From positions 34,305 to 98,304 of the IMG/VR virus record IMGVR_UViG_3300033146_002768: a stretch of 64,000 nt of DNA; one strand, written 5' to 3'. The DNA is from a virus. Both the position numbers and the translations under genes were made by a program. The notes below the pieces were generated by a model. It did no database searches, was not told where the DNA came from, and was given only the letters and a program-made list of their open reading frames with translations. Position 1 is the stretch's first letter. Every line of letters starts with the position of its first letter. Below are positions 16,819 to 24,997 of this stretch, in pieces.

Positions 16819-17280
16819 ATGAAACGGCTAGCCTTAATGATAGGTATAGCTGGTTGTGGAAAAAGCACTTTTGTTAATGATAAGTTGACAAAAAAATACC
16901 AAGTGTTATGTCTTGATGATATGAGACTAGCACTTGGTAGTGCTTATGATCCAAAAACAGAACCAGTTGTATATATGGTAGTTGATGTTCAAGCAAGAGC
17001 ATTAATGGAAAGAGGTCTTCCAATAGTTGTTGACTCAACATGTTGTCAAATAAATATTGTGAAGAAATGGAAAAAATTGGCTGAGGAGTATGGATATGAT
17101 TTAGTTGGAGTTCATATCAATACTAAATTTGATATTTGTAGTAAACGACGAGTTGATCAAATTCCTTCTTATGTTTTAATAAGAATGTATAATGATCTTA
17201 CTGAATTATTAGAAGTTAAAGATGAATTATTTGATAAATTCATAACTATCAATGATAAAGGAAATAAAATCAATGGCTGA
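16819..17280 (+). CDS. P-loop kinase, AAA_33 / polynucleotide-kinase-like
   Basis: Walker A GIAGCGKST at the N-terminus. Downstream LDDMR and VVDST resemble the T4 Pnk kinase domain. Confidence 0.55.
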   Translation: MKRLALMIGIAGCGKSTFVNDKLTKKYQVLCLDDMRLALGSAYDPKTEPVVYMVVDVQARALMERGLPIVVDSTCCQINIVKKWKKLAEEYGYDLVGVHINTKFDICSKRRVDQIPSYVLIRMYNDLTELLEVKDELFDKFITINDKGNKING

Positions 17281-17518
17281 ATTATCAACTGATGAAAAAA
17301 ATAAAATACATCAGAAAGAAATTTTAGAATTTTTAAAATATCTTATTGAAAATCCTGATCATGAGATTAGGATTTCTGATATGTATGGTGAAGGTGAAGC
17401 TTTAATTAAAAAGGATGATATACTTCCATGGTTTAAAATATGGAATGATCCTGATAGTGAAAGCATTTTCTTTGATTTTGATGATATTCTTAAAGCTTTA
17501 GGTTTAAGAGAGGATTAA
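17273..17518 (+). CDS. hypothetical protein
   Basis: Acidic 81-aa ORF. The alternative start at 17252 overlaps the kinase gene. Confidence 0.4.
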   Translation: MAELSTDEKNKIHQKEILEFLKYLIENPDHEIRISDMYGEGEALIKKDDILPWFKIWNDPDSESIFFDFDDILKALGLRED

Positions 17519-17519
17519 T

Positions 17520-18365
17520 ATGAGTAATGATTTACCAGATATACAAGGAACACAACCAGCTATTCAAATCCCTATAAGAGAGGTTGGGGTTGGTAATGTT
17601 CAAGTTCCATTTATTATGGAACCTATGTATGGAGATAAAGCAATCTCAATGGTTGCTAATGTTTCTATGAGAACTAATTTAGAAGCTGATGTTAAGGGAA
17701 TTTCAATGTCAAGATTGATTAGAACATTGAAAAAATATTTAGATCTTCCTTTAAAAAAGGTTTTGATAAAACGAATTCTTGTGGACTTAATGAAAAATGT
17801 TGGATCAACAGAAAGTTATATGAGATTTGATTTTCTTTATCCAATAATTAGAAAGTCAGTGTTGTCGGATAATGAATTTCCAATATTTCATCAATGTAGA
17901 TTTGAAGGACAAATGAGAGGAGATAACTTTAAATTCTTTCAGGGAGCAAATGTTCAATATGCTTCTTATTGTCCTTGTAGTGCTGAATTGTCAGGGCATC
18001 TTGAACAGAATGGACTCAAGGGATTTCCTCATGCCCAAAGATCATTTGCTAATATAATGATTGAAGGTGAGAAAGACTCTTATATCTGGCTTGAGGACAT
18101 TATAGAGTCCGTTGAGAGAGCAATAAAAACAATTCCATATCCTATTATCAAACGGGTAGATGAACAAGAGATCGCTCGTATTGCGGCAGAAAATCCTATA
18201 TTTGTTGAAGATGCAATTAGACAAATAAGTGTTGAATTAGATAATATGCCAGTTTATGATTGGATTGTTAAATGTTCTCATGAAGAAAGTATTCATACAT
18301 CAGAAGCTATTGCTGTTAACTGGAAAGGTTTGACTGGCGGATTTGATTATAAATTCTTTCTATAA
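17520..18365 (+). CDS. folE2: GTP cyclohydrolase I type 2 (FolE2/MptA family)
   Basis: N-terminal LPDIQ...IPIREVGV. KGISMSRL. CPCSAELS...HAQRS matches the FolE2 CPCSKEIS...HNQRS. C-terminal ESIHTSEAIA. RBS GAGAGGA. Confidence 0.75.
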   Translation: MSNDLPDIQGTQPAIQIPIREVGVGNVQVPFIMEPMYGDKAISMVANVSMRTNLEADVKGISMSRLIRTLKKYLDLPLKKVLIKRILVDLMKNVGSTESYMRFDFLYPIIRKSVLSDNEFPIFHQCRFEGQMRGDNFKFFQGANVQYASYCPCSAELSGHLEQNGLKGFPHAQRSFANIMIEGEKDSYIWLEDIIESVERAIKTIPYPIIKRVDEQEIARIAAENPIFVEDAIRQISVELDNMPVYDWIVKCSHEESIHTSEAIAVNWKGLTGGFDYKFFL

Positions 18366-18367
18366 GA

Positions 18368-18610
18368 GTGTCAGGAGAAACACTCAGAATTAAAGTTGGC
18401 GATATTGTTAAACTTCAAACTCATGATTTTAGAAAAGAAGTTCAAGGTCAATTTGGTGTAACATTAGAAAGATATAAAATTATAAAAGAAAAGGTAAATG
18501 GTACCTTTACAGATTATAATGCAGTAGTTTTAATAACAACTGGTAAATTAAAAGGGCAATTGTATCATGTTGGTCCTTATAGATTATCAGGGTTAAGTCA
18601 TCATATATAA
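18368..18610 (+). CDS. hypothetical protein (GTG start)
   Basis: 80-aa ORF with a weak RBS. Confidence 0.35.
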   Translation: MSGETLRIKVGDIVKLQTHDFRKEVQGQFGVTLERYKIIKEKVNGTFTDYNAVVLITTGKLKGQLYHVGPYRLSGLSHHI

Positions 18611-18623
18611 AGGAGAATTAAAA

Positions 18624-23107: not shown

Positions 23108-23421
23108 TGGCGATTACTATAGGAAAATTAAAATGTTTCTTCTGTGATAAAAAGGGTGGATTTTTTCATTCAGTTCATAAATATGGAGAATATGGTGTAG
23201 TAGGTGGCAGATATCATTATCATCCAGAATGTCTTTTAAGAATCCAAGAAAATCCAACAGGATTTACTCACATGGATGCTGACAAGGCAATTCATATTCA
23301 AGAATTGAAAGTAAAAAATATAAAAGATAATGAAGATATTAACAACAAATATAATAATAAAATTAAGTCTTTGAAACGAGGACATTTTGAATCAATGTTA
23401 CCAGGAAATGGAGGAAAATAA
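23107..23421 (+). CDS. hypothetical protein
   Basis: 104-aa ORF. CFFCDKKGG...HPEC. Confidence 0.45.
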   Translation: MAITIGKLKCFFCDKKGGFFHSVHKYGEYGVVGGRYHYHPECLLRIQENPTGFTHMDADKAIHIQELKVKNIKDNEDINNKYNNKIKSLKRGHFESMLPGNGGK

Positions 23422-23423
23422 AA

Positions 23424-23603
23424 ATGAGTTGTTGTGAAAAACAAGAAATAATAAGAGTTATGGGCAAGTGTAGTGATATGTGTCATGTAATGTATCCTGA
23501 TGGAACTGAATCAGAAGGTATGGGGGTTCCAAGAGATATTAATATTGGCAGCGGGGATTATTTAGATTTTGATTACTGCAGAAACTGTGGGGTACTATTG
23601 TAG
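23424..23603 (+). CDS. small Cys-rich protein (59 aa), not in the ORF track
   Basis: GGAGG 9 nt upstream. MSCCEKQEIIRVMGKCSDMCHVMYPDG...YCRNCGVLL. Confidence 0.35.
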   Translation: MSCCEKQEIIRVMGKCSDMCHVMYPDGTESEGMGVPRDINIGSGDYLDFDYCRNCGVLL

Positions 23604-23640
23604 GAGAATTTCCAGTAGAGATTCCAGGGAGTATTGAAGA

Positions 23641-23862
23641 ATGAAACATACAATAGAAAGAATTAATCCTGATCTTTATATATTAGATGATTCTATTCAT
23701 ATAAAATGGGTTGAACAATTTGGAAATGATAATGGTTGGTGTATATTTAATGAAGAATCTTCTTATCAAAAAACATTTAGAACATTTGAAAATGCTTTAT
23801 TACAAGCAATGGATAAAACACCAAGAAAACCAGAAGTATTAACACCACCAGTGGGGGAATAG
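23641..23862 (+). CDS. hypothetical protein
   Basis: 73-aa ORF. Confidence 0.4.
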   Translation: MKHTIERINPDLYILDDSIHIKWVEQFGNDNGWCIFNEESSYQKTFRTFENALLQAMDKTPRKPEVLTPPVGE

Positions 23863-23863
23863 A

Positions 23864-24997
23864 ATGGCGAATTTAGAAAAGTTAAAAACATTAATACCAT
23901 TACAAGATTTAGAGCAATCAGCTCAACAGCAAATTTATGATGCTTTAGAATTAGATTTCTTAAAGACATTAGCAATTATGCCTGATTGTCATACAGGATA
24001 TACTTTACCTATCGGTGGAGTAGCATTGCTTGATAATGTTATATCTCCTGAATATGTCGGATATGACATTGGATGTGGTATGTGTTGTATTACAACTGAA
24101 AAGAAAGTTAAGAAACTTAAACCAAGACGACTACATGAAATATTTGATTCAATATATGAGTTGATTCCTGTTGGTGTAGGTGTACCAAGAAAGACTCCAT
24201 ATGACGATATTGAACATTTTATATCTGCATCTGGTAATAAAGACTTGAATAAAAAAGTTAATCAAAGACAATACATTCAAGTTGGAACCCTTGGAGCAGG
24301 TAATCATTTTATTGAATTAGGTGCTAATCAAGAAGGTTTCCTTACAGTTACTATACATTCAGGATCAAGAAACCCAGGTCATTCGATTGCTGGACATTAT
24401 ATGCAATTATCTAAAAATGAAGATAAAGATTTACCAAATGGTTTTCTTCATTTTGATAGTGACTTAGGTCAAGCATATGCTCAAGATTTAAGTTGGGCAT
24501 TACAATTTGCTCTTGATAATAGAAAATTAATGATGACTGAAGTTTTAGAAATTCTTAATTTTCAACCTTTTGAAATTCGTAATTATATTAGATCATCTAA
24601 TACTTTTATAAATGAAAATCATAACAATGCAACTATAAGAAAAGATGGTATTCTTCATAGAAAAGGCGCAACTCCTGCTGAGAAAGATGTTCTTGGAGTT
24701 ATTCCTGGTACTATGAAATCTGGGGTTTATATTACTAAAGGTCTTGGTAATGAAGAATTTTTATCATCAGCATCTCATGGAGCTGGTCGAAAGATGAGTA
24801 GAAACCAAGCAAAGAAAACCTTTGTTTTAGATCAACATAAGTCGTGGATGAAAGGAATCATTGCTAAAGTTGAAAAGTCTACTTTAGACGAATGTCATGG
24901 AGCATATAAAGATGTTACTAAGGTAATAAAAGCTCAGGAGGGAATTGTAATTGAAGTAGTTGACTATATTAAACCATTAATTAATATAAAGGGATAA
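23864..24997 (+). CDS. rtcB: RtcB-family RNA ligase (3'-phosphate/5'-OH RNA ligase)
   Basis: DCHTGYTLPIGG, GYDIGCGMCCI, GAGNHFIELG, HSGSRNPGH, ASHGAGRKMSR. This is the full set of RtcB metal- and GMP-binding motifs. Confidence 0.85.
   Translation: MANLEKLKTLIPLQDLEQSAQQQIYDALELDFLKTLAIMPDCHTGYTLPIGGVALLDNVISPEYVGYDIGCGMCCITTEKKVKKLKPRRLHEIFDSIYELIPVGVGVPRKTPYDDIEHFISASGNKDLNKKVNQRQYIQVGTLGAGNHFIELGANQEGFLTVTIHSGSRNPGHSIAGHYMQLSKNEDKDLPNGFLHFDSDLGQAYAQDLSWALQFALDNRKLMMTEVLEILNFQPFEIRNYIRSSNTFINENHNNATIRKDGILHRKGATPAEKDVLGVIPGTMKSGVYITKGLGNEEFLSSASHGAGRKMSRNQAKKTFVLDQHKSWMKGIIAKVEKSTLDECHGAYKDVTKVIKAQEGIVIEVVDYIKPLINIKG

Follow-up and report, generated by a model that had tools for sequence, protein, structure and literature searches.

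The 64,000-nucleotide stretch of viral DNA described here (positions 34,305 to 98,304 of the IMG/VR record IMGVR_UViG_3300033146_002768, hereafter the window) carries the gene of an intact RtcB ligase and the gene of a small stand-alone kinase of the polynucleotide kinase (Pnk) type. Both are probably independent accessory genes of the phage. An initial annotation of the same sequence had recognized the two genes on the plus strand, and strong homologies, not chance, now back both identities. The genes and the sequence preceding rtcB are located as follows:

16819–17280, + strand: stand-alone 153-aa P-loop kinase of the polynucleotide-kinase clade (AAA_33, phrog_505, family alignment, AlphaFold2 model and Foldseek)
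23848–23853, + strand: GGGGGA, a Shine-Dalgarno-like sequence 6 nt upstream of the rtcB ATG (direct sequence reading)
23864–24997, + strand: rtcB, encoding a 377-aa RtcB-family 3'-phosphate/5'-hydroxyl RNA ligase (Pfam, PHROG, PDB alignments, MAFFT)

Membership of the ligase in the RtcB family is read directly from its matches, where the domain scans used throughout are Pfam, PHROG and NCBIfam searches of about 70 open reading frames (ORFs) in the window. The protein matches the Pfam family PF01139 over its full length (E-value 3.5e-83, 280.6 bits against a cut-off of 27, profile positions 7–426 of 426), as well as phrog_1075 “tRNA splicing ligase” (5e-99) and the T. thermophilus, P. horikoshii and human RtcB structures in the PDB, and its gene lies in a co-directional block and has a good ribosome-binding site. 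In the first domain of the PDB alignment, D68 and C71 correspond to D95 and C98 of P. horikoshii RtcB, while a MAFFT multiple alignment equates N147, H148, H165 and H253 with N202, H203, H234 and H329. H305, located in the sequence SASHGAGRK (motif HGAGR), corresponds to the GMP-accepting H404, and R309 to R408. A pairwise phmmer alignment shifts H329 by eight residues, but T. thermophilus RtcB and the multiple alignment agree on H253, which lies in NENHNNA. The initial annotation had made its claim depend on metal-binding His and Cys residues that are not mutated; these, like the GMP-accepting residues, are all intact, and the enzyme is complete as judged from its sequence. All metal- and GMP-binding residues are shared with RtcB of E. 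coli (from the rtcBA operon) and of P. horikoshii (PDB 1uc2, 4dwq), and because they are all present, the same three-step GTP/Mn2+ chemistry is expected. By analogy with the family, the enzyme would use GTP and Mn2+ to form an RtcB-His305-GMP adduct, and would hydrolyze a 2',3'-cyclic phosphate to the 3'-phosphate and activate the latter as RNA(3')pp(5')G. Attack by the 5'-OH end would then restore a normal phosphodiester, with no end-healing enzyme needed.

The RtcB protein is part of a very large metagenomic clade of ~375 aa, with more than 7900 homologues at E<1e-20, and falls under the NCBIfam cut-offs of the named cellular subfamilies (PRK09588, 160.8 bits against 407), including that of the PrfH-linked RtcB2 (TIGR03073, 127.8 against 271.8). 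An RtcB2-PrfH pair is thus not recognizable, as the TIGR03073 score is sub-threshold and no RF-1/PrfH domain occurs in the scanned ORFs. Likewise, no rtcBA operon is seen among the window ORFs, which contain neither an RNA 3'-terminal phosphate cyclase (RtcA) nor a sigma54-activator (RtcR) domain. Compared with E. coli rtcBA, the gene therefore lacks a nearby RtcA cyclase, RtcR regulator and archease, and compared with archaeal RtcB the protein is about 100 aa shorter. The ORFs that flank rtcB (23641–23862, 25001–25321 and 25318–26052) match nothing in PHROG or Pfam. In close relatives (sampled loci, close or distant, carry L numbers in this text), RtcB is interrupted by an intein exactly before the metal-binding Cys (GYDIG/C...VHN/CGMCC, with slashes at the junctions), giving precursors of 726–727 aa. 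This is seen in L014 (16833–19013, on the same contig as L046 5426–7603) and in L010 (from 10141). The radical SAM/SPASM gene of L046 is also interrupted, by about 880 bp. The position of the inteins in L014 and L010, right before the catalytic Cys, marks the site as conserved and functional; RtcB of the window has no intein.

The ATG of the kinase gene abuts the TAA stop codon of the RNA polymerase beta gene (preceding sequence AGAGAGGA). Its product matches Pfam AAA_33 (1.3e-13) and phrog_505 “polynucleotide kinase” (5.7e-16), and it aligns with the N-terminal kinase part of the NCBIfam model bacter_Pnkp (TIGR04075; 4e-8, 31.8 bits against a cut-off of 750, positions 10–137 of 851). This score is far sub-threshold, and the protein is not a full-length bacterial Pnkp with kinase, phosphoesterase and ligase. 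A profile of 20 homologues searched against the PDB returned as significant matches only nucleic-acid or tRNA-linked kinases, namely Clostridium thermocellum Pnkp (CthPnkp; 1.5e-10), Trl1 kinase (1.7e-9), PSTK (6e-8), T4 Pnk (2.4e-7) and Pnkp1 (4.7e-6). The AlphaFold2 model is confident (mean predicted local distance difference test score 89.7), and its top Foldseek matches are the CthPnkp kinase (TM-score 0.82, root-mean-square deviation 2.1–2.4 Å), mammalian PNKP, PSTK, Trl1 kinase and T4 Pnk (TM-score 0.77–0.78). The resemblance to the kinase domain of T4 Pnk that the initial annotation had noticed is therefore real, both in the profile search and in the fold, and it concerns the kinase module alone.

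The catalytic residues of the kinase are likewise intact. Across 20–21 homologues, G9, G12, G14 and K15 of the P-loop, D33, R36, D72 and R110/R111 are invariant, and S16 is nearly so. D33 and R36 align with D38 and R41 of CthPnkp, whose kinase domain (PDB 4gp6, and 4mde, which is the D38N mutant) is the best match in both sequence and structure. The P-loop, the general-base Asp and the acceptor Arg of a Pnkp kinase domain are thus all conserved, and the same elements within the same fold are shared with the Pnkp enzymes of T4 and of the mycobacteriophages Omega and Cjw1. CthPnkp consists of three domains (kinase, phosphoesterase and ligase-like adenylyltransferase), has about 850 aa and works with Hen1, whereas the window protein corresponds to the kinase module and nothing else. 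Similarly, T4 Pnkp has a C-terminal DxDxT phosphatase that the 153-aa window kinase does not have, and no Rnl1 or Rnl2 accompanies it in the window. No DxDxT (HAD) 3'-phosphatase domain is found in the kinase, which ends at residue 153, and neither Pfam nor PHROG matches the 88-aa ORF that follows. Since the best 150 cluster representatives of the family are nearly all 145–185 aa long, the stand-alone kinase is the native architecture and not a truncated Pnkp. The family of such mini-Pnk kinases comprises 478 clusters (50% identity, E<1e-10) and matches 269 phage records, and mycobacteriophage genes annotated as polynucleotide kinase match the window kinase at 28–31% identity. The fold and the Asp/Arg acceptor motif suggest that the protein phosphorylates a 5'-OH, which would most likely belong to a nucleic-acid end.

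The initial annotation had combined the two genes into one RNA-repair capacity, which does not agree with what the two enzymes are expected to do. RtcB ligates 3'-phosphate or 2',3'-cyclic-phosphate ends to 5'-OH ends without the help of a kinase, and because it uses the 5'-OH ends directly, a 5'-kinase would destroy its substrate. Pnk-type kinases serve another route, which ends with sealing by an ATP-dependent ligase after phosphorylation of the 5'-OH and dephosphorylation of the 3' end (PMC3400036). According to a survey of jumbo phages, polynucleotide kinases go together with ATP-grasp ligases (PMC7824862). The ~70 scanned ORFs of the window contain no ATP-dependent RNA ligase, no phosphatase, no 2H, HD, HAD or metallophosphoesterase domain, and no RtcA, archease or PrfH. 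Neither Pfam nor tblastn detects an Rnl1, Rnl2 or other PF09414 ligase that could be the partner of the kinase in the window, which covers 64 kb of the ~207-kb genome, and tblastn of the window with repair proteins from related loci (including the ligases from L024, L027 and L029) yields no match. Furthermore, kinase and rtcB are separated by 6.6 kb and ~20 ORFs, among them those of FolE2 and DnaJ-type zinc-finger paralogues, that have no link to RNA repair. Because these unrelated ORFs lie within 16819–24997, the two genes are the ends of an 8.2-kb stretch and not a cluster.

Comparison with related loci points in the same direction, since the presence of the kinase varies. In the close relative L045, FolE2 starts 10 nt after the stop codon of RNA polymerase beta, with no kinase in between, and RtcB is kept with 70% identity. 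When ten RtcB lineages were sampled, a kinase homologue within 10 kb was found only in the window clade and in the distant contig L004, so that eight of the ten are without one. Conversely, the loci anchored on the kinase (L007, L011–L013, L017, L018–L021 and L022–L027) have no RtcB within 10 kb. The complete T7-like genome of Desulfovibrio phage ProddE (42.6 kb) encodes a kinase of 38% identity with the motif DDLRLAHG, flanked by a MazG-like NTP-PPase and NrdDG; homologues of RtcB or Rnl are absent from it. Indeed, mini-Pnk kinases occur without any ligase or phosphatase partner.

Nevertheless, a single phage RNA-repair system, in which the kinase heals ends or provides a parallel branch, has evidence on its side, and this evidence weighs against the independence proposed here. 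Both genes belong to the same co-directional block, and the order RNA polymerase, kinase, FolE2 and, further on, RtcB is kept in the close relatives L010, L014 and L015. In the distant phage contig L004, RtcB lies 1.4 kb from a kinase homologue (28% identity), and this proximity, together with the order of kinase and RtcB, which four close relatives preserve, makes some functional link possible. Distant relatives of the kinase (25–30% identity) come fused or linked to HD or phosphatase domains and lie near PF09414 ATP-dependent RNA ligases (L024, L027), often close to tRNAs (L024, L026 and L027). The arrangement in L024 and L027 is classical heal-and-seal, but it is not seen in the window. With a kinase that would consume the 5'-OH required by RtcB, no phosphoesterase or ATP-dependent ligase in the window to complete the other route, RtcB retained without the kinase in L045 and without one within 10 kb in eight of the ten sampled lineages, and the kinase of ProddE existing without any RNA ligase, a single system is highly improbable. 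The chemistry, the gene content of the window and the comparative evidence together are the reason to treat RtcB and the kinase as independent of each other.

As to the role of the ligase, RtcB would during infection most likely reseal tRNA, either of the host or of the phage, or another translation RNA cut by metal-independent host nucleases, for which anticodon nucleases and abortive-infection effectors are candidates. Such a counter-defence role, in which phage RtcB repairs RNA breaks made by host nucleases, goes back to proposals of 2011 and 2021 (PMC3203893, PMC7824862) and is the standard reading that the initial annotation had followed. The gene context of the relatives fits this established hypothesis, as the closest RtcB genes beyond the clade lie in tRNA arrays (2 to 25 tRNAs within 10 kb), in part within islands of RNA-repair and counter-defence genes:

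L028: RtcB with 67% identity, 2 tRNAs; NAD-salvage genes at the locus
L029: RtcB with 63% identity, 25 tRNAs; Rnl2, Metallophos (metallophosphoesterase) and a cREC domain at the locus
L031: RtcB with 59% identity, 13 tRNAs; HAD_SAK_2 “Swiss-army-knife” phosphatase, a homologue of the anti-Pycsar protein Apyc1 and NUDIX at the locus
L001: RtcB with 55% identity, 9 tRNAs and a tmRNA

No tRNA is seen at three control loci centred on a radical SAM gene that is unrelated. In the window itself the picture is different, and the part of the counter-defence claim that looked to tRNA genes in this genome finds no support there: a tRNA/tmRNA scan of its 64 kb, out of a genome of ~207 kb, is negative, and Rfam searches at gathering thresholds (whole window) and at E<=0.5 (16–32 kb) recover no element. 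Because of these negatives, it is the relatives that provide the tRNA link of the window RtcB, and a search of the accessible literature found no experimental test of phage RtcB in counter-defence; both points count against the role suggested here. Explanations that involve Y RNA, a ribozyme or an intron were dropped in view of the same absence of Rfam matches.

The lack of tRNAs near rtcB, in the window as well as in close relatives, would also suit a substrate other than tRNA, such as cleaved 16S rRNA (on which RtcB2 acts together with PrfH), phage mRNA or an RNA in phage RNA processing (intron or ribozyme products, RNA circles). Like RtcB2, the protein is short (377 aa), the PrfH-linked model TIGR03073 gives it 127.8 bits, and RtcB2 offers a precedent, as it repairs 30S subunits and not tRNA (PMC9304027). 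However, this score is far under the 271.8-bit cut-off and a PrfH (RF-1 domain) protein is not found in the window, so that an RtcB2-like repair of rRNA is less likely. Outside the clade, tRNA arrays surround the gene in the nearest relatives, and the window contains no ribozyme, intron or other Rfam element. Taken together, a non-tRNA substrate is unlikely, and the resealing of cleaved tRNA or other translation RNA is preferred. For the kinase, the corresponding question is whether it acts on a nucleic-acid end or is a nucleoside, nucleotide or other small-molecule kinase for nucleotide metabolism or DNA modification of the phage. The neighbourhood speaks for the latter and so against the preferred assignment: the gene lies beside the FolE2 GTP cyclohydrolase in the window and in L010, L014 and L015, beside the MazG-like NTP-PPase and NrdDG in ProddE, with a PfkB sugar/nucleoside kinase in L018 and L021, and with replication genes in L011–L013. 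T4 Pnk itself accepts nucleoside 3'-phosphates. By contrast, the significant PDB sequence matches and the 38 top-ranked fold matches are without exception enzymes with nucleic-acid or tRNA-linked substrates (Pnkp, PNKP, Trl1 kinase and PSTK), and the family shows no variation in the Asp-x-x-Arg acceptor motif of Pnk. A small-molecule substrate is therefore doubtful, though it deserves more weight than the other alternatives. One specific form of it, a kinase of 5-hydroxymethyldeoxyuridine (5-hmdU) in DNA, as used in thymidine hypermodification, was rejected. ViI-like phages carry the 5-hmdU DNA kinase, and none of them is among the 269 phage records matched, while the PDB and fold matches are all of the Pnk type.

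On the preferred assignment, the kinase would most likely transfer the gamma-phosphate of an NTP to the 5'-OH of a nucleic-acid end, or possibly to that of a nucleoside or nucleotide, with D33 as the putative general base. It would act in nucleic-acid metabolism apart from RtcB, for which a phosphorylated 5' end should be unusable. Its neighbours in the various loci, RNA polymerase and FolE2 in the window, MazG and NrdDG in ProddE, a UvrD-like helicase, a clamp-loader-like ATPase and a 5'-3' exonuclease in L011–L013, and PfkB in L018, are genes of nucleic-acid or nucleotide metabolism and not of RNA repair. A bolder proposal is that the stand-alone kinases of ~150 aa form a large phage family with a function of its own that is not end healing for ligation. 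They may phosphorylate the 5' ends of cleaved host or phage nucleic acids, thereby blocking resealing of the RtcB type or directing these ends to 5'-phosphate-dependent decay, or they may phosphorylate a nucleotide or an intermediate of DNA modification. If so, the kinase would work against, or parallel to, the phage's own RtcB, but at present the proposal is speculative and its truth would be a surprise.

RtcB is already common in phages, so that the finding is real but ordinary and adds one more uncultured jumbo-type phage to the known carriers. Phage RtcB ligases of the same Pfam family and the same ~375-aa architecture are known from mycobacteriophage subcluster K1, from Proteus, Cronobacter, Listeria and Bacillus phages and from jumbo phages. 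In total, 710 phage records contain a homologue, and the best matches from cultured phages are 40% identical to the window RtcB over 96–99% of the protein. In distinction to other phage RtcBs, the gene of the window clade adjoins no tRNA or other RNA-repair genes. The lesson for annotation is that an RtcB and a Pnk-like kinase in one genome are not to be read as one repair pathway, because each of the two would use up the 5'-OH end that the other needs. Stand-alone mini-Pnk kinases, for their part, are widespread in phages.

The genomic setting is that of a large phage. The window has ~30% GC and encodes unsplit RNA polymerase subunits (beta', 10987–13707; beta, 13732–16818), a T4-type large terminase, a tail sheath and baseplate proteins, and a 207,111-bp metagenome contig from the Joint Genome Institute encodes proteins identical to the kinase and RtcB of the window. 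The source is thus an uncultured, jumbo-type phage of ~207 kb with low GC content and a contractile tail. All genes between positions 32 and 44102 are tightly packed on the plus strand. Scans for promoters and terminators gave hits at chance level only, and megablast of positions 16000–25000 against a phage collection gave no nucleotide match (roughly 85% identity or more) and no cultured phage.

Several neighbouring genes between the kinase and rtcB are conserved among the relatives. The FolE2-type GTP cyclohydrolase I at 17520–18365 (NF010200, 216 bits against a cut-off of 215) is 83–86% identical in relatives. QueC, QueD, QueE and DpdA-type genes are not recognized in the window, and the pathway of FolE2 may be that of folate or of 7-deazaguanine. 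Two proteins without an assigned function, encoded at 18624–19775 (383 aa) and 22382–23107 (241 aa), share 75–87% identity among relatives, which is above the values for RtcB and the kinase. The 241-aa protein contains D-x-S...YDG motifs that resemble the polymerase palm motifs A and C, and its sole match is phrog_21037 (unknown function). At 21586–22382 lies an array of small DnaJ-type CxxCxGxG zinc-finger paralogues, ending in ...DWVENVVGK, the copy number of which varies from 3 in the window to about five to nine in relatives (L010, 6041–8130).

Downstream of rtcB, positions 26049–31277 contain a radical SAM/SPASM gene followed by six paralogous ORFs (120–190 aa) with the N-terminal sequence MK.K.DF(I/V)TNSSS.(S/N)(F/Y), for which no Pfam or PHROG annotation is found. 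The same arrangement occurs in the close relative L046 (8650–14349, 6 copies) and in the distant 70-kb phage contig L004 (5280–8035, 5 copies, GFVSNSSSSSF), and L023 (6408–7537) encodes two proteins with FETNSSS.H. The SPASM enzyme may modify a Ser of the N-terminal motif of the paralogues. Two further radical SAM genes are located at 413–1561 and 60997–61761, which makes three such enzymes per 64 kb of window, and homing-endonuclease-type genes (NUMOD3; GIY-YIG) at 32–376 and 1539–2522. An SPFH/Band_7 (prohibitin-like) protein is encoded at 31347–32693, about 6 kb downstream of RtcB; in L028 (11885–13252) such a gene is found one gene on from RtcB, and in ProddE (L044, 15478–16368) 3 kb upstream of the kinase homologue. 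This recurrence may be coincidence. Directly upstream of the RNA polymerase genes, positions 3303–10159 hold a ubiquitin-like conjugation gene set, which includes an 858-aa protein with a weak match to Prok-E2_D, ThiF/E1-like proteins (7018–7698 and 9260–10159) and a ubiquitin-like protein with SAP and ThiS/TGS domains (7730–8689). L014 and L015 begin with conserved counterparts of the E1-like gene at 9260–10159 and of the C-terminal part of the ubiquitin-like gene.

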